NCBI GenBank assembly: GCA_965371785.1
Contig: CBDUZS010000005.1
Coordinates: 3,410 to 67,409 of the forward strand
Length of the DNA: 64,000 nucleotides
Source of the DNA: an uncultured bacterium
GTDB lineage: Bacteria > Fermentibacterota > Fermentibacteria > Fermentibacterales > JCC-6
Reading direction: 5' to 3'
The position numbers and the translations under genes are program-made. Each line of letters opens with the position of its first letter. The first letter of the stretch is position 1. The notes beneath the pieces were generated by a model. It did not search any database. It saw only the letters and a list, made by a program, of their open reading frames with translations, and was not told the DNA's origin. Positions 6,525 to 64,000 of the stretch are shown in pieces.

Positions 6525-9269
6525 GTGCATAAAAGAGCAATGCCGATTTTACTCGCCCTGCTCATGTTCGTTGCCCTGTCAGCAATGGCCGGAACCACGG
6601 GAAAGATTGCCGGAAGGGTGCTAGACACCAGCGGTAATCCCCTGGTCGGAGCCACCGTTATGATCGTTGGAACGAGCTACGGCGCAATGACGGACGCGAA
6701 CGGTGAGTACTTCATCATCAACCTTCAGCCGGGAACTTACACACTGAAGGCCATGATGGTTGGAATGGGTGATGTAACCATGGAGGGGATTCAGGTCGTG
6801 ACAGACCTGACAACCCGGACCGATTTCCAGCTCAACATCGAGTCAGTAGGACACACCCTCATCACGGTCACAGACCAGAGGGGGATGATCCTCAGGGACG
6901 TCACCAGTTCGGTTCAGGTGATAAGCCGTGACGAGATCAGGACCATGCCCGTTGCCGGCATCGCAGACATAGTCAACCAGCAGGCAGGCGCAACCAGCCA
7001 GGGCAACCAGCTTCACATCAGAGGCGGTCGAGCCGGTGAGGTTGTCTACCTGGTCGACGGAGTCGCACAGATCGATCCCCGGTTCAACACGTTCGGAAGT
7101 GATATTCCAATGTCCGCCATCAGCGAGACTTCGATTATCACCGGCGGTTTCGGTGCCGAGTACGGCAACGCCCAGTCCGGTGTGATCAACATCATCACTC
7201 GCGAGGGGGGCTCGAACTACACGGGTTCGATCAGCTTCAACGGCAACAACTGGGAAGCGCTCGGCGCAGCCAGCGACTGGACCTGGAGCCATCCTGGTCC
7301 ATTCCGCGAGGCCAGGCTGAACGGTGAAGCCGCCATAGGCGGCCCCGAGCCGTTCACCAGCTATCTGCTTCCCGCCATCGGCCTCAACATCCCGGGTGAC
7401 ACCCGGCTCTTCATCTCCGCGGAATGGCTTCAGAATGGCGGAGGAGAAGATGGCAGATATTCCTACTGGTTTAACGGCTGGGAGGATATGACCTCGCTCA
7501 ACGTCAAGCTGACCTACAAACCCACTCCGAGAACGAAGCTCAACTTCACGGGTTACTTCATGGACAGAACGCGTGGCTTCGGAATCTGGCAGTGGCACAA
7601 ATTCGAGGATGTCTACATCGATGAAGATCCTCTGTCCCCGACTTACGGAGACACACTTGCCAATGGCGGGAGCATCCTCTACGGTCTTCCCACCAGGTTC
7701 AATACGAACTACAGCATCGGTTTCGCTCTGACACAGACCCTCAGCGATGCGACGTTCCTCGAGTTCAAACTCAACCAGTTCCAGGCTCGTTACGAGTATC
7801 GGATGCTGAACGATCCGGATAACCCGCTCTACGGCATCGATCCTCTGTACATGACCGAATATTTCGGAGAAGGATGGACGATTGAAGACTGGCTCGAATA
7901 CACTCCCAGCAGAACTCTCGACACCGATGGGTTCTACCGGGGCGGCGCCAGCCGATACGCCTGGAACGACTCGAGAAGCACAACCTCTACTCTAAGACTC
8001 GATATCACCAGCCAGGTGAACAACAACCATCAGGTCAAGGCCGGTATCGAGGGCAAGTACTTCGATGTCTTCAACTTCAACGTCGATACCGCTTCGGGTG
8101 GAAACATCTACATGGACAGGTACCGTGTATTCCCCAATGCGGGAGCGGTTTACCTCCAGGATAAGATGGAGTACCGGGGAATGATAGTTAACGCCGGGCT
8201 CAGATTCGACTACTTCGATTCCAACTTCGACAACTGGCCGGCCGACCCGACAAACCCCGTCGTTCCGGGAACCAGCCCGAGTGACCCCAACCACATCGTC
8301 AACCCGATCAGCGTTCCCATCAAGTACCACCTGAGCCCGCGCGTCGGCTTCTCGCATCCCATCACCGAACGTGACGTGCTCCACTTCACCTACGGTCACT
8401 ACTTCCAGACTCCGCAGTTCGATCGTCTGTTCGGCGGTGCCGACTTCGATCTCGCTGGCGCATTCCCCCAGGTCGGCAACCCTGACCTCGACCCCGAGGA
8501 GACGATCTCCTACGAAGTGGGTGTGAAGCACCAGTTCGACGATATCACAATGATCGACATCACCGGTTACTTCAAGGACATAACAGGCCTGGTCGACATG
8601 CAGAAGAACTTCTACACGGCAGTCGACGGCTACGATATGTTCATCAACGCCGACTACGGTAACGTTCGTGGCGCAGAGCTCTCCATCATGAGACGTCCCA
8701 GCAACTTCTGGTCCTTCAACGCCAACTACTCATACTCCGTGGCAAAGGGCAAGAGTTCCAGCGCGACACAGAACTACATCTACAACTGGGCGGGCTGGAT
8801 CATTCCCAAGAAGGAATCCTATCTCCATTGGGATCAGCGCCATTCAGTGAACGCGAACGTGGATTATCGAATTCCCAGGGGTGAGGGTCCCATGATAGGT
8901 GACTCCCATTTCCTCGAGGGTTTCGGTGCTCACGTGGAGTGGGCATTCGGCAGCGGTTTCCCCTACAGCTCCGCCAACCAGGGAACCGAAGCGCCCGAAA
9001 TCAACGACATGCGCTATCCGTTTACGATGAACACCACTATAAAGGTCAACAAGACCTTCTGGCTCGGCCCCGTATCGCTGGATATCTACTGCTGGGTCGA
9101 GAACCTGTTCAACAGGCATAACATCTTCGATATCAGGGATGAAGCCTGGTACGACGCAGATCAGGATGGTAACGGAGAGCCCGATCACGATCCGATGGGC
9201 CAGCTTGGTGACCCCAGTGCTTACACGAGACACAGACAGATCCGTTTCGGCATCGGTCTGGAGTGGTAA
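6525..9269 (+). CDS. TonB-dependent outer-membrane receptor with an N-terminal carboxypeptidase-regulatory-like domain
   Basis: GTG at 6525 lies 7 nt after aaaggag. Signal peptide is present. 'GKIAGRVLDTSGNPLVGATVMIVGTSYGAMTDANGEYFIINLQPGTYTL' is CarboxypepD_reg-like. The plug motif is 'QLHIRGGRAGEVVYLVDGV'. A long beta-barrel ends in an aromatic residue (...RFGIGLEW). Confidence 0.85.
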   Translation: MHKRAMPILLALLMFVALSAMAGTTGKIAGRVLDTSGNPLVGATVMIVGTSYGAMTDANGEYFIINLQPGTYTLKAMMVGMGDVTMEGIQVVTDLTTRTDFQLNIESVGHTLITVTDQRGMILRDVTSSVQVISRDEIRTMPVAGIADIVNQQAGATSQGNQLHIRGGRAGEVVYLVDGVAQIDPRFNTFGSDIPMSAISETSIITGGFGAEYGNAQSGVINIITREGGSNYTGSISFNGNNWEALGAASDWTWSHPGPFREARLNGEAAIGGPEPFTSYLLPAIGLNIPGDTRLFISAEWLQNGGGEDGRYSYWFNGWEDMTSLNVKLTYKPTPRTKLNFTGYFMDRTRGFGIWQWHKFEDVYIDEDPLSPTYGDTLANGGSILYGLPTRFNTNYSIGFALTQTLSDATFLEFKLNQFQARYEYRMLNDPDNPLYGIDPLYMTEYFGEGWTIEDWLEYTPSRTLDTDGFYRGGASRYAWNDSRSTTSTLRLDITSQVNNNHQVKAGIEGKYFDVFNFNVDTASGGNIYMDRYRVFPNAGAVYLQDKMEYRGMIVNAGLRFDYFDSNFDNWPADPTNPVVPGTSPSDPNHIVNPISVPIKYHLSPRVGFSHPITERDVLHFTYGHYFQTPQFDRLFGGADFDLAGAFPQVGNPDLDPEETISYEVGVKHQFDDITMIDITGYFKDITGLVDMQKNFYTAVDGYDMFINADYGNVRGAELSIMRRPSNFWSFNANYSYSVAKGKSSSATQNYIYNWAGWIIPKKESYLHWDQRHSVNANVDYRIPRGEGPMIGDSHFLEGFGAHVEWAFGSGFPYSSANQGTEAPEINDMRYPFTMNTTIKVNKTFWLGPVSLDIYCWVENLFNRHNIFDIRDEAWYDADQDGNGEPDHDPMGQLGDPSAYTRHRQIRFGIGLEW

Positions 9270-12100: not shown

Positions 12101-12203
12101 TGAAATGGACAGAGAGACAGAACTGACAAACATGAGGCACATATCAGGAGGAGGGGATCCTCCGGGTATGTGCTCAGAGGAAGAATTGGAGGTGAAGGAG
12201 GGT

Positions 12204-14438
12204 ATGAGGAACCTCACGCGAAGCAGATTCCTGGTCCCTGTCCTGCTGGTGGTATTTCTACTGGCGGGAACGGGCGTGGCCAGGGAACTGCGCGAACTCC
12301 CCATGCCGGAAGGCAACACTGACGCCAGACCACCCCTGGTCTGGGTACTTCACAATCTCAGTAACGTCTGGTGCGCCTTTCTCAACATTGGGGTTTACGG
12401 TGATCCGTGGGAGAACTACCCAAGAATGGAATGGCCCGGAGGAGAGGGAAGCAATTACCTCTGGATAGGTAACATATGGTCCTGCGTCTACGGACCCGTT
12501 ACACCGACTGGAACCGTGGCCAAGTACGCAAGCACTCCGGATTACTCAGCAGGCTGGGAACTCTGGCCTAGCGAGGGATGCCCGGTGGTCAAGCTGTCAC
12601 CCGGCTCCATTGCTCTCGAGCAGTCGGAATACGGATACGATGACTGGGAACCCACCCAGAACGACGATCCCTACGGGATGAAAATCTACGAGTATAACCT
12701 CGGCTGGGGCACGCCGGGATTCAACAACTTCATCGCAACCGATCACATCATCACCCATCACAGTGAGTTCGGCAATCCGGGAATACCTCTCGATGCCTTT
12801 TCCGTGTCCATAATGGGTGATTGCGATGTAGCCACTGCCGATGTGACAGATTGCCATCTGGATGACATGGTCTACTACGACGGCCATGCAATCTGGTGCA
12901 ACGACCCCGACGCCACCTTCGAATACGAGTTCGATGGAGGGGTCAAGGCATCGGAGCAGGATATCTACACCTATCAGCAGAACCCCGATAACCCGCTGCC
13001 GCCGGAAGACCCTCAGAACGTCTTCTACTACTACAACTACATGGGCAGCGACAACATCCTCGACAACGATGTCGATGGCAACGGAGTGAGTGATCACTTC
13101 ACCGTCATCTTCAAGATAGAGATAGCGTCTGGCGACACGATCTTCGCGGTCGAGCCTAACACCGGTCTCGAGCTCTTCGCCGACGGCGCACCACCCGACT
13201 GGTACGAGCACACAGTGGGCGATACCATCTACTGCGTGATTCCCAGAAACATGAGCAACATCTGGGATACCGATAACCCTGGAACCGGTGTCGACGACTC
13301 CGGTGAACCGGAGCTGGATCCCCCGGTTAACGGTTTCATCGCATGGCGTCTGCTCGATTTCTGGATAAAGAAGGTCGATGGAACCATTGAGCGCCCGATC
13401 GACGTTTACGGTGTGCCGATTGCCATGTCGCATTCCTGGTGGAACTGGGAGAGCGATCCTGGCAACGACATCGAGAAATACAACTACATGTGGGGAGAGA
13501 ACCCGGATCAGAGCGGAAGGCACAGTGGACCTGCCTACTACGTTGACTGGACAGGCAATCCTAACGCACCCAGCGCATTCGAGCCCGTCAACGCCGGCCC
13601 GTTCCCCATCGTGCACGACAACCCCATCGCCCTTGGATACCCTCAGTTCGACTACAGGTTCCTGATATCCGCAGGTCCTGTAGAACTTGCTGACGGTGAC
13701 AGCCTCCATTTCGTGGGCGGCTGGCTTGTAGGGCGCGGGCTTGCAGGGGCACGAGAAGTAGCGGACAACATGCTCGACGCCTACTACCGCGATGGCGGAT
13801 GGGGTGTTCCGCAACTGCCGCCGTCACCAATCCTCTTCTACCAGGCAGGCGATGGTTTCGTGCAGCTCGAGTGGGGCGCGAACGCAGAGAGTTACAACCC
13901 GTTCGGAGGCTACAACATCTACCGCTCGACCTTCGAGCCTTCGGGATGGACTCTCATGCGTACCGAAAGCTCCGGTACCAACAGCTGGACCGACACGTCG
14001 GTTCAGAACGGCTTCCCTTACTACTACGTCGTTACCGCTTACGATGAGGTCACGACCGTAGAGAGCACGAAGTCGAACTACAAACAGACACTCGAAGGCA
14101 CTCCCGTTCCGGTTGTCCCATCCTGGACCGTCGATTCGGGCTGGATGGACAACGTTTCCGTGGTGCCCAACCCGTACAGGGGCTCGGCAGCATGGGAAGT
14201 CACGTACTTCGACAAGATAGCCTTCATCAACCTGCCGGCAATGTGCGACATCGACATCTACACGCTTGCGGGAGATCTGGTTATTACACTGGAACACCGC
14301 AGCGCGTCAGGTGCGGTGGGCACGGCGTACTGGGATCTACTCAGTAGGAATACTCAGGAAGTCACTTCAGGTCTCTACATCTACCGTGTGGCGACTGAAA
14401 GTGATTTCGTGATCGGCAAATTTGCCATCATCAGATAG
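12204..14438 (+). CDS. Large secreted protein with an Fn3-like module and a T9SS-type C-terminal sorting domain
   Basis: ATG at 12204 follows gaaggagg. The signal peptide is MRNLTRSRFLVPVLLVVFLLAGTGVA. The Fn3-like segment is '...GFVQLEWGANAESYNPFGGYNIYRS...YYYVVTAYD'. The C-terminus is 'VVPNPYRG...IDIYTLAGDLV...GLYIYRVATESDFVIGKFAIIR'. Confidence 0.75.
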   Translation: MRNLTRSRFLVPVLLVVFLLAGTGVARELRELPMPEGNTDARPPLVWVLHNLSNVWCAFLNIGVYGDPWENYPRMEWPGGEGSNYLWIGNIWSCVYGPVTPTGTVAKYASTPDYSAGWELWPSEGCPVVKLSPGSIALEQSEYGYDDWEPTQNDDPYGMKIYEYNLGWGTPGFNNFIATDHIITHHSEFGNPGIPLDAFSVSIMGDCDVATADVTDCHLDDMVYYDGHAIWCNDPDATFEYEFDGGVKASEQDIYTYQQNPDNPLPPEDPQNVFYYYNYMGSDNILDNDVDGNGVSDHFTVIFKIEIASGDTIFAVEPNTGLELFADGAPPDWYEHTVGDTIYCVIPRNMSNIWDTDNPGTGVDDSGEPELDPPVNGFIAWRLLDFWIKKVDGTIERPIDVYGVPIAMSHSWWNWESDPGNDIEKYNYMWGENPDQSGRHSGPAYYVDWTGNPNAPSAFEPVNAGPFPIVHDNPIALGYPQFDYRFLISAGPVELADGDSLHFVGGWLVGRGLAGAREVADNMLDAYYRDGGWGVPQLPPSPILFYQAGDGFVQLEWGANAESYNPFGGYNIYRSTFEPSGWTLMRTESSGTNSWTDTSVQNGFPYYYVVTAYDEVTTVESTKSNYKQTLEGTPVPVVPSWTVDSGWMDNVSVVPNPYRGSAAWEVTYFDKIAFINLPAMCDIDIYTLAGDLVITLEHRSASGAVGTAYWDLLSRNTQEVTSGLYIYRVATESDFVIGKFAIIR

Positions 14439-14450
14439 GGAGGAGGGACC

Positions 14451-15434
14451 ATGAAACTAACAAGCGCAGTTCTTACAGTAGCGGTCGCCGTCTTCCTGCT
14501 GTTCCCTGCCTCTGTTGAGGCATCAGCCTATGCGAAGGTAGGAACCTCCGGTGCCCAGTTCCTGAAACTGGGAATGGGTACGCGCGGGGCAGGCATGGCA
14601 GGTGCGTTCATCGCGAGCGCAGACGACGCCAGTGCTGCATACTGGAATCCCGCCTGCCTGGTGAGGGTATCGGGAACCCAGGTGCAGTTCAGCGGGACCC
14701 AGTGGTTCGCCGACGTTCTGTACGGTGCAGCCAACGTGTCCCATCACGTACCGAATCTCGGTACGTTCGGGCTGCAGTTCGGTCTGCTCACTTCCGGTGA
14801 TATGGATGTAACAACCGTCGAGGAACCTCAGGGCACAGGTGAGACGTTCACATGCTCTGATATGGTCATCGGTATATCCTACGCCAGGAAGCTGACAGAT
14901 CGGTTCAGTGCCGGTCTCACGCTGAAATACGTCCGTGAGAGCTGGGATGACGTCAGTGCCGGAGGGCTTGCCGTCGACATCGGCACGCTCTACGACACGG
15001 GTTTCAGAACGCTTCGCATTGGCATGACCATTCAGCACTTCGGTGGTGAACTCACGCCGGATGGCGAATACACTACCTGGAACAGCGGCCAAGACTCAAC
15101 ACTTGCATACGAGTCTTACTCCATGCCGATGACCTTCAAACTGGGTCTTGCCATGGATGTAATCGACCGCGGGCCCAACTTTCTCACGGTGGAGGTCAAT
15201 GGTGTACACCCGGCCGACAACGTAGAGCAGGTCAACGTAGGGGCCGAGTACTGGTACAACAACATGGTAGCCGTCCGAGGAGGCTATCGGATCAATACGG
15301 ATGAAGAAGGTCTCACAGCCGGTGCGGGGTTCCGTATCCCTCTCGGTGACAAGACCATCACCCTTGACTACGCTTACGCCGACTGGAACAAGCTGGACAT
15401 GGTCCACAGAGCCAGTATCGGCATAGCGTTCTGA
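14451..15434 (+). CDS. PorV/PorQ-family outer-membrane beta-barrel protein
   Basis: Signal peptide is present. The family motif is 'GTSGAQFLKLGMGTRGAGMAGAFIASADDASAAYWNPACL'. The product shows an alternating beta-strand pattern and ends '...RASIGIAF'. Confidence 0.7.
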   Translation: MKLTSAVLTVAVAVFLLFPASVEASAYAKVGTSGAQFLKLGMGTRGAGMAGAFIASADDASAAYWNPACLVRVSGTQVQFSGTQWFADVLYGAANVSHHVPNLGTFGLQFGLLTSGDMDVTTVEEPQGTGETFTCSDMVIGISYARKLTDRFSAGLTLKYVRESWDDVSAGGLAVDIGTLYDTGFRTLRIGMTIQHFGGELTPDGEYTTWNSGQDSTLAYESYSMPMTFKLGLAMDVIDRGPNFLTVEVNGVHPADNVEQVNVGAEYWYNNMVAVRGGYRINTDEEGLTAGAGFRIPLGDKTITLDYAYADWNKLDMVHRASIGIAF

Positions 15435-15489
15435 GGAAACTGGAAAACCGGTCGGCGGGGGCTACCCCGCCCCGGTCGGAAGGAATCTG

Positions 15490-16665
15490 ATGGTTCTCAT
15501 GGCGACTTTGATGCTCAGCGGATTGACAGGTTTTCAGGTCTCCTGGACCATAGAGCCTGCAACCTTGCAGACCGACGGTCTGATCGACCTGGAGATCACC
15601 ATCGTAGATGGAGATCTGCTGTTCATCATGGATTCCGGGGAAGAGGCTGCATCCTACGAGGTTGTCGCTTCCCTGGATGACGGCAGCTTTGATCGTGCCA
15701 GTGGTACGATCACGAGATCCGATCTGCCCTTCGTGGAACATCTGTCACTCTCCAGCGATGAACCGGGTGACCACATGGTCTACCTCGTTTTCGGTGATCT
15801 GGAATCCGCGCGAAGGAGGAGATGGCAGGAGGAGATTGAGATTCCGCTGATCGATCAGCTGAGCTGGTCATCAGGGAGTATCCAGATCCCTTCCGTATCT
15901 CCCATTCGGTCAAAGGGTTCAATCGCGGTGCTCTGGGAAGTGTATTCACCCTCACAGATCAGTGATACAGGTTCTGTGAGGGCTGCCTACCTTCTCCATG
16001 ATCGCGGTAATCATCCGATGGGCGAGGGCTGGATGACCGAGGTTGCTTCGGAAAGTGACGGCCTGCTCTTCTCAGCCGAGCTGTCCCTTGACGGAGTCGA
16101 TGCCGGTGAGTTCGAGATCACAACCGCCGCTTTCCTGAGCGACGAAATGATAACCTCATCCCATCGCACCATCAGAGTGCTGCAGAACTGGGACGTCTGG
16201 GGTGAGAACCGGGACGACACCATCAGGCTGGTGAGACCTATTGCCACGAATGCCGAGTTGAATGAGATCGAGGACGCAGCCAACACTGGAGAGAGACTGA
16301 TCGTGATGTCGGATTTCTGGCTGAAACGCGATTATTCTCCTCTCGTTCGTGGTAACGAATTCCTCGAAGAGTACCTGAGGAGACTGGACTACATCTCTCT
16401 CTCCTTCTCGGTTCACAATATCAGTGGAATCGCCACCGATCAGGGCATGGTCTATGCCCTTCTCGGAGAACCTGATATCGTTGAGGACAGACCGATTGAA
16501 CTGTCGACCAGCCCATATCAGATCTGGACGTATTTCTCTCCTGCCGCAACGATTGTGTTCGTGGACAAGGGCGGGTATGGCCAGTACGAACTCAATACTC
16601 CCTGGGAGGATGTCACAAGTGCATACGAGCACATGGATATCTGGAGGGCATATGAGAGCTTCTAG
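15490..16665 (+). CDS. GWxTD-domain family protein (degenerate motif GIATD)
   Basis: The C-terminal 'GIATDQGMVYALLGEPDIVEDRP...YQIWTYFSPAATIVFVDKGGYGQYEL' parallels the GWxTD domain of the next gene. Confidence 0.6.
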   Translation: MVLMATLMLSGLTGFQVSWTIEPATLQTDGLIDLEITIVDGDLLFIMDSGEEAASYEVVASLDDGSFDRASGTITRSDLPFVEHLSLSSDEPGDHMVYLVFGDLESARRRRWQEEIEIPLIDQLSWSSGSIQIPSVSPIRSKGSIAVLWEVYSPSQISDTGSVRAAYLLHDRGNHPMGEGWMTEVASESDGLLFSAELSLDGVDAGEFEITTAAFLSDEMITSSHRTIRVLQNWDVWGENRDDTIRLVRPIATNAELNEIEDAANTGERLIVMSDFWLKRDYSPLVRGNEFLEEYLRRLDYISLSFSVHNISGIATDQGMVYALLGEPDIVEDRPIELSTSPYQIWTYFSPAATIVFVDKGGYGQYELNTPWEDVTSAYEHMDIWRAYESF

Positions 16666-17980
16666 ACAGCTTCTCCCGTTGCTGCTAATGACAGGTCTGG
16701 CCGCCGCTTCAGGGCTCGCTTCGATAAGCCAGGGTGATATCACCTTTGCAATCGACACGGCCGTGTTCTCCCTGGTGCCGGGATCTGATTCCCTTGTACT
16801 GGAAGTCTACCAGGAGATCGATGTGGAGCAGTTCGCGTTCGATGCCTCCGGACTCAGCCTGTTCACGACCGAAGCCTATCTGCTGGATACTTCGGGCGAC
16901 ACCACGGTGATCCAGAGATGGAACTCCGAGGTCGAATGGAGCAGGGGAAGATCGGTAGTGAATGGAACTCTCATACCTGTTTCCTCAGGGGAATACGTTC
17001 TCGTAGTCGTCGTATCCGACAGAGGAAATGGACGACAGGGCACCGTGGAGCGGGATATTCTGATAGATATCCCCGAAACGGTTAGTCAGATCGAGCTTGC
17101 CAGGTTCGTGATGCCGGCCAGTGATGAATCCTCGAACGTTCTGCGAAAGGGCGGAGTGATAGTCTATCCCGCCGCTGACAGCAGGTTCGTTCTCCCGGGG
17201 GAATCACTTGCATTCGTCTATCTCGAAATCTACAATGCAGGCGGCATGACTTACTCCCTGCAGAGCAGACTCGTCTCTCCCACCGGGGAGACGCTCTTCG
17301 CCAGACCCTGGAATTCATTCGAGATTCCTGACGGGATGTCAGTTGTCGGTATTCTCGACAGTCTTGATCTTTCCGCCGCAGCTGGAACCGGTCTTTACAG
17401 GATACGGGTATTCCTTGCTGCCGGTTCGGACACTCTTGTTGTCGAGAAACCGCTCATGATATCCCGGATGTCGGTTCAGGAGGAGATAGCTGCTGCACCG
17501 GTGGATTCTTCCGCCAGGTGCACCGAACAGCTTGCCCTTCTTCTTTCCGAAGGGGAACTGGATATCTTCGGGCATCTGGACGAAGCCGCGAGAAACAGGT
17601 TCTACGACGAGTACTGGAGTTCGAGCAGTTCTGAAAGGGTTGTGTTCGAATCGAGATGCCGTGAGAGCAACAGATTCTCATTCCTCGGCAGAGAGGGATG
17701 GCAAACCGACCGGGGGCGGGTGTACGTGAAGTACGGTGTTCCCGACGACAGAGAGATAGTACCGCTTACGAGTGGTCAGGTCCCGTACGAAATCTGGCGC
17801 TACTACTCTGGTGGTGGCGACGAGTTCGTATTCGTGGATACTGATGGAAGTGGTAGTTACCTTCAGGTCTACTCCACAGTTGATGGAGAGATCAGCTTTG
17901 ACAACTGGCAGGATTTCCTTTCTCCGATCGGTGGCTCCAGATCGGGAGCCTCATACGGTGGAGCGGGAGGGTACCTGTAA
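16652..17980 (+). CDS. GWxTD domain-containing protein
   Basis: ATG at 16652 overlaps the previous gene by 14 nt. The signal peptide is MRASRQLLPLLLMTGLAAASG. The C-terminus is 'GWQTDRGRVYVKYGVPDDREIVP...PYEIWRYYSGGGDEFVFVDTDGSGSYLQV'. Confidence 0.7.
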   Translation: MRASRQLLPLLLMTGLAAASGLASISQGDITFAIDTAVFSLVPGSDSLVLEVYQEIDVEQFAFDASGLSLFTTEAYLLDTSGDTTVIQRWNSEVEWSRGRSVVNGTLIPVSSGEYVLVVVVSDRGNGRQGTVERDILIDIPETVSQIELARFVMPASDESSNVLRKGGVIVYPAADSRFVLPGESLAFVYLEIYNAGGMTYSLQSRLVSPTGETLFARPWNSFEIPDGMSVVGILDSLDLSAAAGTGLYRIRVFLAAGSDTLVVEKPLMISRMSVQEEIAAAPVDSSARCTEQLALLLSEGELDIFGHLDEAARNRFYDEYWSSSSSERVVFESRCRESNRFSFLGREGWQTDRGRVYVKYGVPDDREIVPLTSGQVPYEIWRYYSGGGDEFVFVDTDGSGSYLQVYSTVDGEISFDNWQDFLSPIGGSRSGASYGGAGGYL

Positions 17981-18084
17981 TGGAAGTGAAGGGTGAAAGA
18001 TGTCCGGCGGTTCATCCGTCCCGGGCAAGAGAAGTATTCGATAGTCAGGTGACATGTTCACCATTGTGTCCGAGGAGGTTAAAT

Positions 18085-20523
18085 ATGAAAGGTTTCGCAG
18101 GATCGCGCCGAACGGCAGTAATTACCGTTCTGGCGGCGTTCCTGTTGCCAGCCATAGGCATTGGCGTGGCTAATGCGATCGAGCTCGGGGAAACTGTTAT
18201 GCTCAAGGTCCCCGATATGTCCGAGTTCCCGGAACCGATCGAAGAACACCAGTTCACCTGTCGCGGTGTAACTGAAAACGCCGTCTGGCTGGTACAGGAT
18301 TCCTGCTCCGTCGATGGAGCCGGTCTTGGAGTCCTTGATACGATAGTCTGGAACAACCTGATAGATCAGGCCGAACTCGATATCCTCATGGGTGAATTCG
18401 AGGGGTCGGGAGTCGACGTCTGGGAAGCCGTAACCGCCGGTTTCGGTGGTGTACCGGTTGACACCGACGGAGACCCCAAGGTCTGGATCACTCTGGCCAC
18501 TATCAGGGACGTCTACGTACAGGATCCGAAAGACCGTAATTTCATGGTCTGGGTCAACCCCGATGATGTGAACGGCAGTGGTCTGTTCAACGATCATGAC
18601 TGCATCTACATCAACATCCACACCATGACCCTCAACGCAACATCCATTCAGGTAGCCAAGGAGCTGCGAAGGATCGACATACCGAACGGACTCGGTATGC
18701 TGATCCGGACGGTCCTTGCTCCCACCGAGGAGTTGTGGCTTGTCAGAGGCCTGGGGGAGATAGCTCAGTACCTGAGCTACGGTGTAACCGTGACCGATCC
18801 CGGAGGACAGGGGATCGAGTACAACATGAACGAGTACGAGAAAACACCGTACGCCGATCTTCTCAATTATCAGGCGACTTCCTGGAAGTACGATTTCGCC
18901 GCAACCAGGGGGCAGGAATTCCTCTGGTTGATGTACCTGCGTCAGAGGCAGGGCGACGACATCATCTCGGATATCGCACAGGCCGACTCGCTTTACCTGG
19001 GAATGGACAACATCGCATTCGCGATTAACCCGTCCGCTCCCGACATCCAGGCTGATATCGTTCCGATCTACTTCGACTGGCTCGTGTGCAACCTGTACAG
19101 CAGCCTGAGAAGTACGTTCGCCGGCGGTATCTACACCTACGATTTCCTCGAGGGAAGCGATTTCCAGTTCGCGCACGTGGGCAATTCCGCAGCGTTCACG
19201 GGTAAGTTCACGAACTACCCGATGGGCATCTGGATTCCCGGCGCAACGCAAGGTCTGACCGCACCCATCTGGGCCGCTCAGTACGACTACTTCGAGGGAG
19301 ACTACAGTGCCTACACCAGCGTGAGCTTCAACGGCATGTTCTCGGATGGCAGCGGATCGGGCTCGGCGATCAACGGAGCATGGGAGGGAATCCTTGTCAC
19401 CATCGATTCCACTTCCATGGACATTGCCACCGTCGAGGAGATCACACTCGACAGCTGGTACAACGGCACCTTCACGCTGGCCAATAATGCCTCCTATCTG
19501 ATCGTCACGAACAACAACGATGGCGGAGCATCAGACCTGAGGTACATTCTTGCTCAGGACGTCGACGGTACTCCCAGCGTCATGCTGACGATGCATCAGG
19601 GACTTGTGAGCGAGCAGTACGTTACGCTCTACACAGCTCTCTACAACATTGCCACGATGAGGACAGAGGGTTTCGACTGGGTTGGTCCCATCTTCACTGC
19701 AACGATAGACGACTCCACGTCGGGCCTTGCCATGACCGCTTTTTCGGGCGACATATGGCAGCTCCGTTTCTCGGCATGGGAGAACGGCACTTACGATCTT
19801 ACCGTAGCCGGATACGACAGCGCCGGAACAAGCACCAGCGTCAGCAGAGAACTGGCAGTCGATCATGTGGTCGGTGAGCTGGGTCTCGGTCTGGAGATAA
19901 CCGGTGTCCGTCTTGATGTTCCTGGTGGCGCAGCAGCTCCCGGAAGCATGATCACACTCGCAGAGAGTGATCTGCTGGGTCTTGCGGTTGCCGCCCAGGT
20001 TCCGGTATCCGGGTGCAGAGGCGAGCTTACCGGTGTAATTGCCGGTCCTGTTACCGTAACACCGGTACAGGCAACGCTCTCTTTCGAAGCCGAAAACGGA
20101 CAGGCTGCGATCTACCGCTATTCCAACTCGGGATGGCAGCAGCTCGACAGCTACTATTCAGGTGGATACATCAGCGCACAGGTCAGCCAGGGGGGTGTCT
20201 ACGTTCTGGGCAACGGCCCGGGAGTATCCTCACCCGCAGTTCCCTCCCAGTTCCAGCTGGGCGGCAGCTTCCCCAATCCGTTCTATGCCGAGACCATGAT
20301 CAGCTTCGCGTTGCCCCTTACCGGGCACGTTAACCTGAGGGTCTACGACATGTCCGGACGCCTGGTCCGTACGCTCGTCGATGGCGACATGTCCGCCGCT
20401 AACCATGCAATCACCTGGGATGGCTGCGATCACAACGGTGATCTGGTCGGAGCTGGTGTCTACTTCTGCAGGCTCGAAGCCGCAGGACAGATCCAGACCC
20501 AGAAGATGCTCAGAGTAGAATAG
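18085..20523 (+). CDS. Large secreted protein with a T9SS-type C-terminal sorting domain (possible degenerate MA-clan peptidase-like core)
   Basis: ATG at 18085 follows gaggagg. The signal peptide is MKGFAGSRRTAVITVLAAFLLPAIGIGVANA. The C-terminus is 'FPNPFYAETMISFALPLTGHVNLRVYDMSGRLV...GVYFCRLEAAGQIQTQKMLRVE'. Confidence 0.75.
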   Translation: MKGFAGSRRTAVITVLAAFLLPAIGIGVANAIELGETVMLKVPDMSEFPEPIEEHQFTCRGVTENAVWLVQDSCSVDGAGLGVLDTIVWNNLIDQAELDILMGEFEGSGVDVWEAVTAGFGGVPVDTDGDPKVWITLATIRDVYVQDPKDRNFMVWVNPDDVNGSGLFNDHDCIYINIHTMTLNATSIQVAKELRRIDIPNGLGMLIRTVLAPTEELWLVRGLGEIAQYLSYGVTVTDPGGQGIEYNMNEYEKTPYADLLNYQATSWKYDFAATRGQEFLWLMYLRQRQGDDIISDIAQADSLYLGMDNIAFAINPSAPDIQADIVPIYFDWLVCNLYSSLRSTFAGGIYTYDFLEGSDFQFAHVGNSAAFTGKFTNYPMGIWIPGATQGLTAPIWAAQYDYFEGDYSAYTSVSFNGMFSDGSGSGSAINGAWEGILVTIDSTSMDIATVEEITLDSWYNGTFTLANNASYLIVTNNNDGGASDLRYILAQDVDGTPSVMLTMHQGLVSEQYVTLYTALYNIATMRTEGFDWVGPIFTATIDDSTSGLAMTAFSGDIWQLRFSAWENGTYDLTVAGYDSAGTSTSVSRELAVDHVVGELGLGLEITGVRLDVPGGAAAPGSMITLAESDLLGLAVAAQVPVSGCRGELTGVIAGPVTVTPVQATLSFEAENGQAAIYRYSNSGWQQLDSYYSGGYISAQVSQGGVYVLGNGPGVSSPAVPSQFQLGGSFPNPFYAETMISFALPLTGHVNLRVYDMSGRLVRTLVDGDMSAANHAITWDGCDHNGDLVGAGVYFCRLEAAGQIQTQKMLRVE

Positions 20524-56199: not shown

Positions 56200-56422
56200 T
56201 ATTCGGATACACCCCCTCAGCGGGACAATGAACCAAGCCTGCTCGAACGTCAACGAGCAAAGATCGATACCTGCCTGTTGTCCCGATAAACTGTCCTGAT
56301 CGAAGTGGCGGCCTGCAGAGAACTGCTTCCCGATTGCATCCGGGAACAACGAGGTTGACGGCAGCTATACTCGGTTGGCATCCCGGTGTTGTTACCGAGG
56401 ACTCCATGGAGGGGCGAAAGAG

Positions 56423-56995
56423 ATGAGATTCGTTACGAGAATGAAGACAGGTTTCGTTGTTCTTGCAGTCGTTACGGGAGTGAGCGTTCTCGCGGGGTGC
56501 TGGAATCCCGTAAATCCAACTTACAGTCCCCCCTCTGGTCCTGCGTACTACTCGTTCTGTGACAGCGCCTGGAAGGTGATCAAGAATCTCGAATACGCAT
56601 ACCAGGCAAAGGATATTGAACACTACACGGCATGCTTCAGAGAGGATTTCGAGTTCCACCTTCTCGAAGTGGACTGGGCCAACTACTGGGGTGGTCCCGA
56701 GGAAGATACATGGTGGGGGCTCGACGTCGAGGAGGAGTTCCACATCGCCATGTTCGATTTCGTGGACGATATCGAACTCGAGCTTTCCGGTATTGCCGAA
56801 TGGCCCTGGAGCCCCGATTCCACAGGTCAGTCCTGGGAGCTCCCGAGAACGTTCACTCTCAAGGTCTACTACACGGTTCAAGGCTCGCCCTGGACTGGTT
56901 CCCAGGCATCTGGAACGGCTCTTTTCATTTGCAGAACGGACACTTCGACCGGTGAGTGGTACATCTGGCAGTGGTTCGACCAATCCGAGACATGA
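56423..56995 (+). CDS. Lipoprotein, NTF2/SnoaL-like fold (tandem paralog 1)
   Basis: The lipobox is 'VLAGC'. 'AWKVIKNLEYAYQAKDIEHYTACFREDFEFHL' is NTF2-like. It is the paralog of 57117..57680. Confidence 0.65.
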   Translation: MRFVTRMKTGFVVLAVVTGVSVLAGCWNPVNPTYSPPSGPAYYSFCDSAWKVIKNLEYAYQAKDIEHYTACFREDFEFHLLEVDWANYWGGPEEDTWWGLDVEEEFHIAMFDFVDDIELELSGIAEWPWSPDSTGQSWELPRTFTLKVYYTVQGSPWTGSQASGTALFICRTDTSTGEWYIWQWFDQSET

Positions 56996-57116
56996 CGGGA
57001 CCGTAACAACAGCTGATTGCATCAGGAACAATTAGCTTGACCTGGAGTTATATAGCAGTGATTATCCCGATATTGTTACAATGAACTTCATGGAGGATTA
57101 CCGACAGGTGAGAATA

Positions 57117-57680
57117 ATGAAAAGAATGAAGACAGGCCCCATCGTTTTTGCAGTTGTTGCCGGCGTGAGTGTTCTTGCTGGATGCTGGAATCCCGTCGAT
57201 CCAGATCCCGGCGGCGGCAGTGGTTTTCAGTACTACACGTTCTGCGACAGTGCGTGGAAAGTGCTCAAGAATCTCGAATACTCATACCTGTCACGGGATA
57301 TCGATCACTACATGGCATGTTTCAGAGAGGATTTCGAGTTCCATCTTCTCGAAGTCGACTGGGCAGACTACGATGGTGACGGCATAATCGATCAGTACTG
57401 GGGACACGACCTGGAGGAATCCTTCTCGATTGCCATGTTCGATTTCGTGGACGACATCGATCTCAGCCTTTTAGGTACTGCCGAATGGCCCTGGAGCGGT
57501 GACTCCACAGGTCAGTCGTGGGAGCTGCAGAGAACGTTCTCCCTCAAGGTCTACTACACGATTCCAGGTTCACCCTACGATGGCTCCCAGGCATCTGGAA
57601 CGGCTCTTTTCATCTGCAGAACGGACACTTCGACCGGTGAGTGGTACATCTGGCAGTGGTACGACCAATCGGAGACGTAA
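57117..57680 (+). CDS. Lipoprotein, NTF2/SnoaL-like fold (tandem paralog 2)
   Basis: The lipobox is 'VLAGC'. 'AWKVLKNLEYSYLSRDIDHYMACFREDFEFHL' is present. The start could instead be 57126 or 57081. Confidence 0.65.
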   Translation: MKRMKTGPIVFAVVAGVSVLAGCWNPVDPDPGGGSGFQYYTFCDSAWKVLKNLEYSYLSRDIDHYMACFREDFEFHLLEVDWADYDGDGIIDQYWGHDLEESFSIAMFDFVDDIDLSLLGTAEWPWSGDSTGQSWELQRTFSLKVYYTIPGSPYDGSQASGTALFICRTDTSTGEWYIWQWYDQSET

Positions 57681-57717: not shown

Positions 57718-59595
57718 ATGAAGACTAACATTGCACTGACAACCCTGATTCTGTTTCTCTTCTCTGGTGTCAGCTCTTCTGATCTCGAAATACACGAAAT
57801 CCGGCACTGGGTATTCTTCGCGGATAGAGGTCTGGAGGTTGATGAAAGGCTTGCTCAGAGGGAGGCCTTCCTGGTTGCTGGTCCCTCATGGGAACGACGG
57901 GTTCGAGCCGGTCTCACGGGTGTGGACGAATACGACCTCTACCCATGGAAGGGTTACGTTGCCGCGGTCTGTGAGATTGCCGGGTCCATCAGGGCCGAGT
58001 CGAGATACCTGAATGCGGTAAGCGTCGCGGCATCCCCCGAGCAGCTTGAACGAATACTGCAGCTGTCTTTCGTTGATCGCATAACCCCGGTTGGTGCCAG
58101 AACATGGGTGCCCGTAATCGAAACACCGCTTGCCATGGGTGCGGGATTATCCGCATCACAGCTGGCTCAGATCGGGCTCGACAGTCTTCACTCGCGGGGG
58201 TGGACGGGAACGGGAGTGATAATCGGTGTCCTGGATTCCGGCTTCAACCTCGATCATCCGGCTTTTGCCGGTATCAACGTTCTTGATCAGTACGATTTCC
58301 TGATGAATGATCCCGATACTTCCCAGCAGCCCGGGGATTACCCTGGTCAGTCCGATCATGGAACGAAGGTCCTCTCCATTATCGGTGGGCTGGAAGAGAA
58401 CACTTTCAGCGGAGGGGCAACGGGAGCTTCCTTCATTCTCGCAAAGACCGAGGACATTTCAGACGAGTACCCGGAAGAAGAGGATCTCTGGGTTCTGGGT
58501 CTCGAATGGGTCGAGGAAGGCGGCGCTCTTCTGGTTTCCAGTTCACTTGCCTACATCGACTGGTACACCTGGGAAGATCTCGATGGCAACACCGCTGTGA
58601 CAACCATTGCAGCAGATCTTGCTGCATCCAGAGGAATGATGGTCTTCAACGCAATTGGAAACAATGGCCCGGGGGAGGGAACACTGATGGCTCCGGCCGA
58701 TGGTGATTCCGTCTTTGCCGTCGGGGGAGTCGATGCATCCGGGTTCGTTGCCCCGTTCTCCTCGAGAGGCCCGACATTCGATGGCAGGATAAAGCCCGAT
58801 GGTTGTGCCAGGGGACTGTACGCGGTGTTTGTTTCGTCATCGGGAACAGGGTATTCCTCCGGAAACGGCACGTCGTTTGCAACACCCCTCATGTCCTCTG
58901 TGGCTGCCGTTCTTGCAGATGCCCATCCGGAATGGAGTATTGCCGAAGTCGCCTCCGCGATAAAGGCAACCGCATCAAGGGAGTCGAATCCCGATAACTC
59001 TTACGGATGGGGAATCGCGGATGCTTATGCTGCGCTCACCTACAGATCGGTAACCGGCAGCGTCAGGTGGAGCCATACGGGTGAGTACATAGCCGGATAT
59101 CCTCTTACGATTCAGATAGCAGGCAACACACCAGAAGTGATCGAGACGAACGCGGATGGATGGTTCGCCCTTGATCCCGGAGTTCTCGGTGAGTACACGG
59201 TTACAGATGGCGGCGGTTCGGGGATCGTGATCCCGGTAACAGGTTTACTCGATTCCCCCGGGGTCGAGATCGAACTGTTCGTCGATCCGCTGCAATCACT
59301 GCTGGAACCGTCGATCTACCCGAATCCATCTACAGAGGGTATTTACCTTGGCTTCGATGTCATGGCAGGACCGGCAGATGCGGTTATGAGCATCTACACT
59401 TTAACGGGTGACCTCATTCACAGTGAGCAACGTATGAATCTACAGACAGGTATTTACCGGGCTCCCCTGCCCGGGGAAGCCTTCTACTGGTCGGGAACCG
59501 AATCCTCGGGTGACAATGCCGCATCAGGCACCTATTTCGTGCGCCTGACGATCGGGAATGACGTGTTCGTCAGCAAGTTCTCTCTCATTCGCTGA
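57718..59595 (+). CDS. S8 (subtilisin-like) serine peptidase with a T9SS-type C-terminal sorting domain
   Basis: The catalytic triad contexts are 'GVIIGVLDSGFNLDHPAF' (D), 'SDHGTKVLSIIGG' (H) and 'GNGTSFATPLMSSVAAVL' (S). The C-terminus is 'YPNPSTEGIYLGF...MSIYTLTGDLI...GTYFVRLTIGNDVFVSKFSLIR'. Confidence 0.85.
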   Translation: MKTNIALTTLILFLFSGVSSSDLEIHEIRHWVFFADRGLEVDERLAQREAFLVAGPSWERRVRAGLTGVDEYDLYPWKGYVAAVCEIAGSIRAESRYLNAVSVAASPEQLERILQLSFVDRITPVGARTWVPVIETPLAMGAGLSASQLAQIGLDSLHSRGWTGTGVIIGVLDSGFNLDHPAFAGINVLDQYDFLMNDPDTSQQPGDYPGQSDHGTKVLSIIGGLEENTFSGGATGASFILAKTEDISDEYPEEEDLWVLGLEWVEEGGALLVSSSLAYIDWYTWEDLDGNTAVTTIAADLAASRGMMVFNAIGNNGPGEGTLMAPADGDSVFAVGGVDASGFVAPFSSRGPTFDGRIKPDGCARGLYAVFVSSSGTGYSSGNGTSFATPLMSSVAAVLADAHPEWSIAEVASAIKATASRESNPDNSYGWGIADAYAALTYRSVTGSVRWSHTGEYIAGYPLTIQIAGNTPEVIETNADGWFALDPGVLGEYTVTDGGGSGIVIPVTGLLDSPGVEIELFVDPLQSLLEPSIYPNPSTEGIYLGFDVMAGPADAVMSIYTLTGDLIHSEQRMNLQTGIYRAPLPGEAFYWSGTESSGDNAASGTYFVRLTIGNDVFVSKFSLIR

Positions 59596-61551: not shown

Positions 61552-61569
61552 AAGTACCGGATAGCAAGA

Positions 61570-61597
61570 GGGCCGCCTTTCCAGGCGGCCCCTTTTC
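61570..61597 (+). terminator. Rho-independent terminator
   Basis: gggccgcc-tttcca-ggcggccc (8-bp stem) is followed by cttttc. It lies between convergent genes. Confidence 0.65.
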
Positions 61598-61611: not shown

Positions 61612-62613
61612 TCAGCGAATCACCGTGCAGCGCTCTGTGATGATATCACCACTGCTCGTTTCGAGGCGGACGAAGTAGACACCCGTCTCATTGATGACAG
61701 TGCTTGAGACTCCTCCTGCAGCGAATTCGTCTACCGTTCTGCCGGAGAGGTCGAACACCCTTACCGTTCCCGTTACTCCATCGGGAAGAACCGATGAGAT
61801 GCTCAGGAATCCGGTTGTCGGGTTCGGCCCAGCCGTAAGAGCTGCCCCGCCAATCGTAAGACCGGCAGTATCGTAGATGCCCGTGTTCGTGTCGGGAAGG
61901 TCTACGAAGTGAGCGTTCATCACTTCCCTGTTGCCCGCCGACGTCTGAACGAACGTAACGACGTCCAGGTTGTCGAAAGTGTGCTCGGTGGGATTCAGTG
62001 TGTACGGTCTTTCGACGATGATCGTCTCGGGGTACGGTCCTGAGAAGCTGATCGAATACCCCGTCGATCCTGCGGGCCAGGCTCTTGGTTCCCAGGCCAT
62101 CGTCTGACCGGCGTAGTAACCGTAACCTGAACTGGCAACATCTCCGCTCTCGACAATAGCGGAAAAGAGTCTCAGTGAAGATACGCCGAGAGCCTGTTCT
62201 GCCGTGAGAGTGTAGGTCGCGGTTCCACCGGAAGCGTTACCGGAGAAGGAGACCACTATTTCAAGGTAACTGGGCGTTGCAACCCTGTTGTTGATGTTTC
62301 CCTGGACGACGCTCTGGCTCCAGCCCAAAGATTGCAGAAGCCCATCGATCTGGAATGTAGGAGTTGCGGTCCAGCCGTAGAAGGAATGCCGTCCTGCATT
62401 GAACGGGTTCGATGCCGGTCCGTTGTAGAAAAGGATCATTGGCGCTATATCGCCTGATGCGATATAGCCGTTAACCATGCTCTTGACAGCGCCCGCGCTG
62501 CTTGCACAGGCTGATCAACCGGTTTGGGTGAACTCTTCGAAGAGCACCACGCGCTCGGCGGCCATTGCAGCAGCAGCGATCACGAGAAGAGCAACAATCG
62601 TGAATCTGCCCAT
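61612..62613 (-). CDS. Candidate selenoprotein: secreted thioredoxin-fold (UxxC) protein with a T9SS-type C-terminal sorting domain; in-frame TGA at 62515-62517
   Basis: ATG 62613 opens a 32-codon signal-peptide segment, followed by TGA and then, in the same frame, the 288-aa track ORF. TGA aligns with the first Cys of CGPC in the paralog at 62808..63815. Together that is 333 codons versus 335 in the paralog. A pseudogene alternative is not excluded. Confidence 0.6.
62444..62468 (-). other. Perfect 10-bp RNA hairpin inside the coding region (GCUAUAUCGC-AUCAG-GCGAUAUAGC)
   Basis: Perfect inverted repeat 62444-62453 / 62459-62468 encoding G-Y-I-A-S-G-D-I-A. The homologous stretch of the Cys paralog (GHLAAGDLA) is not palindromic at the DNA level. 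Confidence 0.5.
62475..62509 (-). promoter_or_regulatory. Candidate bacterial SECIS-like stem-loop downstream of the in-frame UGA
   Basis: In the mRNA, nt +9..+43 relative to the U of UGA fold as follows. The lower helix is CUGUGC/GCAUGG (two G-U pairs), followed by an internal loop. The upper helix is (G)CAGCG/CGCUG(U), capped by a CGGG loop that starts about 20 nt after the UGA. Confidence 0.4.
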
Positions 62614-62807
62614 ATCACTTCCTCTCACAGAAGAAGGCCATGATATATCCAGACGGGTTTCTGGAAACATACACGAGAATAATGAGATTACATGTGAGGG
62701 GCGTCAATACCCACTTGAATAGTATGGTATTTCCAGAAACGCGGAAACGTCGGACCGGGGCTGTTCGAAGCAGCCTCATGGTTTGCAAATATCAGCCAGG
62801 GCAGTGC

Positions 62808-63815
62808 TTAGCGCAGTACTGTCACCGATTCGGTTACGTGCGCTCCCGTGTCCGTTACGAGCCTTACGAAGTAGATGCCCGCCTCGTCGACATCGAAGCT
62901 GTTCTGTTCCCCTGCAGGAGCTGAACCGATGATTCGCCCCGAGATGTCGTAAACAGACAGTGTGCCCTGAACGCCATCGGGAAGAAGAGGTGTCACGCTG
63001 ATTGCGCCGTTACACGGGTTCGGGCCCGTCAGGAGCATAGGTTCGGCAAATGCCGGATCGTCACCCCCGATGCCCGTTACGAGATCCATGAACTTGGCCC
63101 AGTGAGCGTTCATGACTTCCTTGCTCGAAGGACCAATCTGCTGAACGAAAGTAGTCAGATAAAGCTCATCGTTCACCCATGCAGTGATATCGTAGTCGAA
63201 CTCGAAGTAGAGCGTATCGGGATATGGGCCGGTGAATTCGACCAGTTCACCGTATGGAAGTGTCGCAAGATTATCCCTGAAAGCCTGCTCGAATACCGAT
63301 CCTGACCAGTAGCCGGCTCCGGGTACGTTGTTTTCGACTATTACCGAGAAAATTCTCATGTTCGCCTGGTTCTGCAGGTCCTGCTCTGCTATTAGCCTGA
63401 CACCGATTGTACCGGTCTGGTCATCCCCGTTCCTGACGACGTGAATTGCAAGGTACGTTGGAACGGCAGCCCTCGTGTTGAACGCGTTCTGAAGCGTGTA
63501 GGCACTGGGAGTAAGAACCCCATCCATCTTGAACGTTGGGACGGAGCTGACGCCATATACCGCTTTCCTCGCATTCTGTTCGGTGGGATTTGCCAGGTAG
63601 ATCGGATCGTTGCTTGCCGGCCAGTTGACATGAACACGCATTGTGGCAAGATCACCCGCGGCAAGATGACCGTTGACGAAAGAATTGACCTGTGTTTCCA
63701 CGTTCCAGCAAGGACCGCAGCCGGAGTTCGTGAAGTCTTCGAAGAGTACAACCCTGTCAGCCGCGAAGACACAGGTGAAGAGAAGACAGACCGTTAAAGG
63801 AAGTGCATATTTCAT
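62808..63815 (-). CDS. Secreted thioredoxin-fold (CGPC) protein with a T9SS-type C-terminal sorting domain; Cys paralog of the selenoprotein candidate
   Basis: The signal peptide is MKYALPLTVCLLFTCVFA. 'RVVLFEDFTNSGCGPCW' is present. The C-terminus is 'GPNPCNGAISV...LSVYDISGRII...GIYFVRLVTDTGAHVTESVTVLR'. Confidence 0.8.
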   Translation of the reverse strand: MKYALPLTVCLLFTCVFAADRVVLFEDFTNSGCGPCWNVETQVNSFVNGHLAAGDLATMRVHVNWPASNDPIYLANPTEQNARKAVYGVSSVPTFKMDGVLTPSAYTLQNAFNTRAAVPTYLAIHVVRNGDDQTGTIGVRLIAEQDLQNQANMRIFSVIVENNVPGAGYWSGSVFEQAFRDNLATLPYGELVEFTGPYPDTLYFEFDYDITAWVNDELYLTTFVQQIGPSSKEVMNAHWAKFMDLVTGIGGDDPAFAEPMLLTGPNPCNGAISVTPLLPDGVQGTLSVYDISGRIIGSAPAGEQNSFDVDEAGIYFVRLVTDTGAHVTESVTVLR

Positions 63816-64000
63816 TACGTATCCTTTCGTGTTCGAAAAACACCATAGCCTGAAATACCGTATACAGTATGTAGGAAACTGGTCGTCTGGACAATGGATA
63901 CTGGATCAGCTCCTGCATCGATCTCGGAAAGCTGTTGAGTTAGAGCGTGTACAGCATGCGATAAAACCATTTACAGACTTCATAGCAGTGTAGACAAACC

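Follow-up and report, generated by a model that had tools for sequence, protein, structure and literature searches.

The DNA analysed here is a stretch of 64,000 nucleotides (hereafter the window) from an uncultured bacterium of the phylum Fermentibacterota (assembly GCA_965371785.1, contig CBDUZS010000005.1, positions 3,410 to 67,409 of the forward strand), and our subject is a minus-strand gene with a TGA codon inside its reading frame, which we call the U gene after the symbol U for selenocysteine (Sec). An ATG at 62613-62611 opens the frame, which reads MGRFTIVALLVIAAAAMAAERVVLFEEFTQTG up to the TGA at 62517-62515 (codon 33), continues after it as SACASSAGAVKSMVNGY... and runs unbroken to a stop codon at 61614-61612, making 333 codons when the U is counted. 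A TGT at 62508-62506 encodes Cys36, and the motif reads U-S-A-C. The open reading frame (ORF) track lists only the part from 61612 to 62478 (288 residues), which begins at the internal Met46 of the U gene. Upstream, beyond a spacer of 194 nt, lies a paralog that is 39% identical to the U protein over the full length, from signal peptide to C-terminus; its codons 33-36, TGC-GGT-CCT-TGC, read CGPC and occupy the same place as U-S-A-C. An earlier note, made from the sequence alone, had reported the ATG, the TGA, the downstream frame, the 288-residue ORF and the paralog at these coordinates, and had aligned the TGA with the first Cys of CGPC, with 32 residues before each; our reading agrees on every one of these points. 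The features of the two genes are as follows.

62808..63815, minus strand: adjacent Cys paralog, 335 residues, with CGPC at 63719-63708, an identical three-domain architecture and no hairpin after the Cys codon (fold z = +1.36)
62557..62613, minus strand: start codon and signal peptide MGRFTIVALLVIAAAAMAA, codons 1-19, judged by eye from its positively charged N-terminus, hydrophobic core and AMA/AE boundary; orthologs begin alike, with M/V-x-K/R, a hydrophobic core and an A-x-A end
62518..62556, minus strand: mature N-terminus ERVVLFEEFTQTG, codons 20-32, conserved, matching strand beta-1 of the thioredoxin fold directly before the redox motif
62506..62517, minus strand: redox motif U-S-A-C, proposed Sec33 to Cys36, at a TGA/Cys column with an invariant Cys at +3
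62269..62556, minus strand: thioredoxin-like (Omp28-like) domain, residues ~20-115, placed by the AlphaFold2 model of the Cys ortholog P0040; its invariant Pro85 (in TPTF) would form the cis-Pro loop
61903..62265, minus strand: all-beta (Ig-like sandwich) middle domain, residues ~117-237, placed by the strands of the P0040 model and its full-length match to HBP35 (5Y1A)
61615..61827, minus strand: type A C-terminal sorting domain of the type IX secretion system (T9SS), residues ~263-333, placed by TIGR04183 and PF18962 scores
61612..61614, minus strand: true stop codon, itself TGA, read from the sequence

In a protein search with a U-to-C version of the sequence, 93 homologs were retrieved. 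As many as 88 of them are called at ~288 residues and cover at most ~86% of the query, so that their called starts fall after the TGA; the five full-length ones (four orthologs and one of the paralog type) all have CxxC at that site. The DNA upstream of every copy was then read, covering 74 metagenome loci and 26 loci of species-representative genomes, the latter all metagenome-assembled genomes (MAGs) of Fermentibacterota (Fermentibacteria, Aegiribacteria, Sabulitectum and Hyd24-12). With the residue at the critical column left unconstrained, 98 distinct family N-termini were obtained. The codon in this column is TGA in 90, TGC in seven and TGT in one, and nothing else, while a Cys is present at +3 in all 98. 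In the species-representative Fermentibacterota MAGs, TGA occupies the column in 34 of 35 copies. The Cys forms include the adjacent paralog and the clade of P0040. The Sec/Cys pair of homologs at a redox motif, which the earlier note had taken from two genes, is thus found family-wide, and its suggested search for homologs with Cys or TGA at this column found both. As judged by this comparison of sequences, the pattern is far beyond chance. The pairing of a U gene with a CxPC paralog recurs in L002, L066, L070 and L112, and many genomes carry tandem arrays of two or three U copies (L004, L006, L080, L082 and L086, for example; chromosome OY970370.1 has three tandem U genes).

Two trivial explanations of the TGA can be weighed against these data. 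An error of sequencing or assembly, the true codon being TGC or TGT, would need a difference of one base only. The independent assembly L112, however, is 99.89% identical to the window over 10,120 bp (11 differences) and retains the TGA, as do dozens of assemblies from other projects, and the chance of such an error is vanishingly small. In the second explanation, the U gene is a duplicate of the upstream CGPC gene that has begun to decay, the TGA being a nonsense mutation, and indeed a lone in-frame stop beside an intact paralog resembles a fresh pseudogene. Against it stands the sharing of the TGA by 90 distinct sequences that diverge down to ~40% protein identity, and so does the occurrence of tandem arrays of two or three U copies. 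Moreover, the reading frame is unbroken before and after the TGA, and purifying selection acts on both parts. The 14 codons that precede the TGA are the best-conserved portion of the protein; across 14 sequences their codon differences number 546 synonymous and 241 non-synonymous, with 148, 161 and 698 base differences at the first, second and third codon positions. Change dominated by third positions indicates that this stretch is translated in the frame of the protein body. After the TGA, the downstream ORFs are intact over ~300 codons, and frameshifts or decay are absent from orthologs except in isolated cases (the second copy of L068 and L073, and L042). An isolated nonsense mutation, one of the outcomes that the earlier note had named as fatal to its proposal, does not fit some 90 diverged orthologs and paralogs that keep the TGA between intact, selected flanks, and we regard a pseudogene as scarcely conceivable.

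The isolated cases can be described briefly. One family copy (L042:189-230) has a second in-frame TGA in place of a conserved Trp codon (UGG to UGA), together with a change of its hairpin loop from GGUC to GAUC; a pseudogene or a sequencing error is the likely explanation. In the assemblies of Sabulitectum silens / LQAI-LQAJ, the second tandem copy seems to be frameshifted or truncated (L068:~3540-3700; L073:~3540; L100:10591), its downstream ORF having 43-162 codons.

The RNA that follows the UGA was compared next to the protein, with nucleotides numbered from the U of UGA. Two hairpins are considered in the window.

62485..62502, minus strand: proposed selenocysteine insertion sequence (SECIS) hairpin, nt 16-33; in the window GCAGCG (62501-62496), loop CGGG (62495-62492) and CGCUGU (62491-62486)
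62491..62511, minus strand: alternative hairpin GCCUGUGC-AAGCA-GCGCGGGC, nt 7-27, mutually exclusive with the hairpin at nt 16-33

The first of them occurs in nearly all U forms, with 6-8 bp in a stem formed by nt 16-22 and 27-33. Among 60 U forms, 43 carry the loop GGUC, at nt 23-26. In the clade of the window the loop is CGGG or CGGC, and further clades show UGG or, displaced by one nt, AGGU or AGGC. Over 55 distinct sequences, 92.7% of the cells are paired and five of the seven pairs show double-sided changes, values that none of 500 shuffles reached, while controls with the register slid pair at 17-67% only. Some of the compensations alter the peptide, turning SSWSAV into NSWSTV, SGWSAA or GDWSVV, and compensations that cost amino-acid changes argue that both RNA and protein are under selection. 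A conserved RNA structure after the TGA of orthologs, whose absence the earlier note had listed among its possible refutations, thus exists and covaries. Like the SECIS of Escherichia coli fdhF, the hairpin lies immediately 3' of the UGA within the coding sequence, and the upper stem begins at about nt 15-16 in both. The GGUC loop is at nt 22-25 in fdhF (K-12 genome) and at nt 23-26 in the family, one nt farther from the UGA. Unlike that of fdhF, the family hairpin has no evident bulged U, and the stem sequences are unrelated.

The Cys-form orthologs of the FGDFSTITCGPC clade have a hairpin of their own, a strong one of 9 bp (GUGCUUAYC-CUCA-GGUAAGUGC) that starts 17 nt after the Cys codon and has a loop without G (L037:3107-3128; L039:3077-3098; L096, ~nt 8866-8890). 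It is absent from the Cys forms L022 and L030. This hairpin could be a fossil SECIS or could have another role.

With E. coli SelA, SelB and SelD as queries, tblastn was run against all fetched DNA, and genes for the three proteins are present in the lineage. In L015, L108 and L114 (Sabulitectum MAG), a U-form family gene lies directly beside selD-selA-selB, in what we call the selenium island.

L015:1335-6996: selenium island
L108:5966-13257: selenium island
L114:311-5951: selenium island

The order of genes in the island is yedF, a gene for a Se/S carrier (in L108), a gene for an unknown protein of 163-164 residues, the U gene, selD, selA and selB. In L015, yedF precedes the U-form gene while selD, selA and selB come after it, and each of these genes that is complete passes its NCBIfam cut-off; yedF (TIGR03527) is present in the L015 and L108 islands, and the latter, which lies between rnfB and selA, adds the Se/S-carrier gene (PF11823). 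The selD of the island has an in-frame TGA of its own where E. coli SelD has Cys17 (..CAG-U-AGK), and a GGC-looped hairpin comes after it. The gene order rnfCDGEAB-selA-selB is a conserved one in other parts of the phylum and is seen in Aegiribacteria MLS_C. It is also found on a contig of 2,067,562 bp that also bears the family gene P0083 and on a contig of 2,522,402 bp, which is also the length of chromosome OY970370.1 with its three tandem U genes. In addition, selD is present on contig_9307 alongside the family locus L083. As a side observation, the rnfD gene on the 2.52-Mb contig (L104:6044-7122) is called at 248 residues after a gap of 330 nt, compared with 373-376 residues in L105 and L109, which may reflect a frameshift or an in-frame stop in a long-read assembly.

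The domain content points to a secreted thioredoxin-like protein. The AlphaFold2 model of P0040 (a Cys ortholog, 52% identical; pLDDT 86) shows a thioredoxin fold, a beta-sandwich at residues 117-237 and a C-terminal sorting domain, itself a beta-sandwich at residues 258-331. A strand at residues 22-28 leads to C33xxC36 at the first turn of the helix formed by residues 33-50, so the model has the beta-alpha-beta core and the CxxC at the N-terminus of helix 1 that are typical of the fold, with the cis-Pro loop expected at Pro85, which is invariant across the family alignment. The sorting domain of the U protein passes the cut-off of TIGR04183 (34.8 bits vs 23) and falls just below that of PF18962 (25.1 vs 27). 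The best match of the P0040 model among structures of the Protein Data Bank (PDB) is HBP35 of Porphyromonas gingivalis (5Y1A; E = 4.4e-12, TM 0.58/0.61), a T9SS cargo of the cell surface (PMC2907840, PMC3120885). HBP35 likewise has three parts, beginning with a thioredoxin-like domain that bears a redox xCxxC motif, followed by an all-beta domain and, at the C-terminus, a T9SS domain (5Y1A; PMC2907840, PMC3120885), and its thioredoxin activity, measured as insulin reduction, is lost in a C48S/C51S mutant (PMC2907840). Unlike the U protein, it has Cys and not Sec, its sequence identity is ~12%, and it comes from Bacteroidota rather than Fermentibacterota; a PDB sequence search matched the C-terminal domain only and returned no sequence similarity to HBP35.

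Taken together, the in-frame TGA is real and, as the comparison of genes suggests, almost certainly encodes the redox-motif Sec of a thioredoxin-like protein that is secreted. For the gene at 62613..61612 itself, we consider it very probable that it produces a single protein of 333 residues in which the UGA at codon 33 is decoded as selenocysteine, giving U-x-x-C in a thioredoxin-like domain. The comparative evidence for this decoding is strong, and from it we infer the insertion of Sec. While a ribosome stands on the UGA, the hairpin at nt 16-33 would act as a bacterial SECIS and recruit SelB with Sec-tRNA(Sec), placing Sec at codon 33 and the U-x-x-C motif at the N-terminus of helix alpha-1 in an Omp28/HBP35-like thioredoxin domain. 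From its domain content, the protein would cross the inner membrane by its signal peptide and the outer membrane through the type IX system by its C-terminal sorting domain. The structural match to HBP35 suggests that the product would be a thiol/selenol-disulfide oxidoreductase, either at the cell surface or released. In its catalysis U33 would be the nucleophile attacking substrate disulfides or other electrophilic sulfur or selenium species, and C36 would resolve the selenosulfide. Both the location and the chemistry thus follow by analogy from the domains and from HBP35, and would have to be read as such.

Several observations weigh against this reading. The predicted structure is that of a Cys ortholog, P0040. 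The hairpin overlaps coding sequence, and its conservation partly reflects the peptide. In the clade of the window its loop departs from GGUC, being CGGG, and the isolated sequence has its minimum-free-energy fold in the alternative hairpin at nt 7-27. That hairpin has no family-wide conservation, and with the UGA in the A site it would sit largely inside the ribosome. Single-sequence fold z-scores are modest (-0.04 to -2.3); the true fdhF SECIS gives -0.67 in the same test. Because a genuine SECIS scores so low, and because the clade of the window prefers the hairpin at nt 7-27, single-sequence folding was dropped as a criterion. In addition, no sel gene was found within the 64-kb window, either by tblastn with the three E. 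coli proteins or by comparing ~30 window ORFs with NCBIfam, and ARAGORN and Rfam found no tRNA-Sec in the window or in the 114 loci, which amount to ~1 Mb and include no whole genome. The search for selenocysteine genes and tRNA-Sec that the earlier note had called for therefore gave a divided answer: selA, selB and selD are there in the lineage, on three contigs beside a family gene, while the window has none of them and the ~1 Mb searched has no tRNA-Sec.

This last result would suit another explanation, in which the UGA is read without selenocysteine, by near-cognate insertion of Cys or Trp or through a lineage-wide use of UGA as a sense codon; moreover, Cys at the UGA would yield a working CxxC. 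In the window, however, TGA is the commonest ordinary stop, ending 21 of 40 long ORFs, and it terminates the U gene as well, which excludes a reassigned genetic code. Furthermore, in-frame TGA is confined to the column of the redox Cys, with a covarying hairpin like that of fdhF downstream, and the lineage conserves selA, selB and selD, sometimes adjoining a family gene, with a classic in-frame TGA in SelD. We consider decoding without selenocysteine very unlikely. The count of stops comes from a scan in which codon usage served to look for further genes of the window interrupted by TGA. No other candidates emerged; antisense frames also scored well, so the scan was non-discriminating and only its tally of stop codons was used.

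The domain layout bears on a further alternative, that two products are made: the UGA would end a leader of 32 residues, and a downstream protein starting at Met46 or nearby would stay in the cytoplasm, having no signal peptide. Gene callers do find the ATG at codon 46 in the window, internally initiated cytoplasmic forms of HBP35 of 29 and 27 kDa have been reported (PMC2907840), and termination at the UGA is expected anyway under selenium limitation. Nevertheless, the codon at the position of Met46 is ATG, GTG or TTG in only 27 of the 90 TGA forms. The putative leader is homologous to the N-terminus of the full-length Cys proteins and supplies strand beta-1 and the CxxC of the thioredoxin fold. 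It is also well established that a protein with a T9SS C-terminal domain cannot reach the periplasm if it lacks a signal peptide. The earlier note had doubted an internal start on functional grounds, and the poor conservation of Met46 as a start sides with it. We judge separate products to be highly improbable, and prefer decoding of the UGA as Sec within one secreted protein.

What such a protein does for the cell can be a matter of speculation. Since the U gene lies inside the sel island of one sublineage, and since genomes have two or three tandem Sec paralogs, it is tempting to speculate that the family is the outward-facing part of a system for the acquisition and handling of selenium (or of sulfur and selenium), although we think this rather unlikely. 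In such a system, a selenol at the surface could serve uptake by capturing or reducing selenium or polysulfide species from outside the cell or, as in HBP35, heme. If true, the protein would also be the first selenoprotein shown to pass through type IX secretion and to reside on a bacterial cell surface.

The relation of the U protein to curated families was assessed by profile scores. Its Pfam matches to Omp28 and Thioredoxin_4 are weak and sub-threshold, and membership was rejected for both, since it scores 17.9 vs 34.9 with PF11551 and 16 vs 150 with NF033782, the two Omp28 models, and stays below the Pfam cut-off of Thioredoxin_4. Within the Omp28 superfamily, NCBI already has a curated model for a branch of selenoproteins (NF045500, 'Omp28-related selenoprotein'). 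The U protein, searched as U to C, had no match to it at E <= 0.01 and was rejected as a member (the cut-off is 200 bits). The paralog matches this model with 26.4 bits (E = 4e-6, residues 19-247), and 20 wider relatives do so with 26-73 bits, the best of them reaching 73 against the cut-off of 200. Thus, the domains are homologous to those of NF045500 and Omp28 (NF033782, PF11551), unlike whose members the present proteins score far below all curated cut-offs. Such low scores with NF045500, both in the family and in the wider relatives, argue for a distinct family, which from its sequences is apparently specific to Fermentibacterota. A more distant Omp28-like T9SS protein from another lineage (L111:2854-3894, with Pfam Omp28 and a sorting domain) likewise shows a TGA within its frame, located past the signal peptide. 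Its motif is GGGG-U-PQG with no Cys at +3, and this TGA could represent either a different Sec motif or an error in the G-rich run.

Thioredoxin-fold selenoproteins with UxxC, CxxU or TxxU are known in several families, namely thioredoxin, DsbA-like, DsbG-like and thiol:disulfide interchange proteins (Zhang et al. 2006, PMC1794560). As in the present family, Sec takes the place of a redox Cys in a motif of the CxxC type, homologs come in Sec/Cys pairs, and the organisms are anaerobes. Homologs of DsbA and DsbG are exported proteins. None of these families, unlike the one described here, has a T9SS sorting domain, the Omp28/HBP35-like architecture or tandem Sec paralogs, and Fermentibacterota lie outside that survey (PMC1794560). 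In our searches, the open-access literature held nothing relevant that links Omp28 with selenoproteins, Fermentibacter with selenocysteine, or selenoproteins with type IX secretion, and the searchable open literature had no description of the Fermentibacterota family. The kind of protein is therefore already known, and the family itself is a distinct member of it. The earlier note had called a secreted Sec protein with a T9SS domain unusual. This was somewhat overstated, since DsbA-like, DsbG-like and thiol:disulfide interchange selenoproteins, as well as a model of Omp28-related ones, were already on record. The notable features of the family are its T9SS sorting domain, its tandem Sec paralogs, its occasional linkage to sel genes and its systematic mis-annotation in databases.

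This mis-annotation has practical consequences. Public gene calls clip nearly the whole family, leaving 88 of the 93 entries without signal peptide and active site, and the clipped entries look like cytoplasmic 'T9SS sorting domain proteins' that lack a catalytic motif. Once the Sec codon is recognised, a complete secreted oxidoreductase is restored. Our data also add the Sec trait (selA, selB, a selenoprotein SelD and yedF) to the record of the uncultured phylum Fermentibacterota. If its secretion is confirmed, the type IX system would here display a selenoprotein on the outside of the cell, raising the question of its reductant and of its target in sulfidic, anoxic habitats. Moreover, the short GGUC hairpin, with its many natural compensatory variants, offers a data set for the rules by which SelB recognises SECIS elements outside Proteobacteria.

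The genomic context makes type IX secretion plausible in the organism of the window, as it encodes a PorV-family protein (221 bits vs a cut-off of 90), GWxTD proteins and several sorting-domain proteins. A T9SS-related cluster lies at 12105-20520 on the plus strand, with a 777-residue protein that has a PorU/PorZ-like C-terminal region, an 847-residue sorting-domain protein, a PorV/PorQ-family protein (14451-15431) and two GWxTD-domain proteins (15490-17977). Two tandem paralogous proteins of ~200 residues (56375-56995 and 57081-57680, plus strand; 81% identical DNA), to which no family was assigned, have a lipoprotein-like N-terminus (..LAGCWNPV..) and adjoin an S8 peptidase with a T9SS-type C-terminus (57718-59595).

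Around the U gene, two further features may concern its expression.

62679..62707, minus strand: promoter-like site TTGACG-17-CATTAT in the 194-nt spacer between paralog and U gene; weak evidence
61563..61592, minus strand: GC-rich hairpin GGGGCCGCC-UGGAAA-GGCGGCCC(C) after the stop codon, a possible terminator, with a weak U tract and no call by the consensus scan

The number of promoter-like sites in the region is not above that in shuffled sequences. The element GAGAGGAAG sits 5-13 nt upstream of the ATG at 62613; an alternative in-frame ATG at 62670 is present and was rejected as a start, having no support from orthologs. In many genomes a tRNA-Ser(GGA) gene of 91-93 nt is found just upstream of the family locus (L112:2142-2234; L002:149-241; L017, L018, L058, L063, L064 and L066). 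In the strain of the window it falls directly past the window end at 64000, and it represents ordinary synteny and not a tRNA-Sec. Finally, a TonB-dependent receptor at 6525-9266 (plus strand) gives weak matches to the NCBIfam models 'CU motif-type' and 'PCPU motif-type' (26-28 bits vs 700-800) and is not a member of either; should the U in the names of these models denote selenocysteine, they would add to the curated selenoproteins of the outer membrane.

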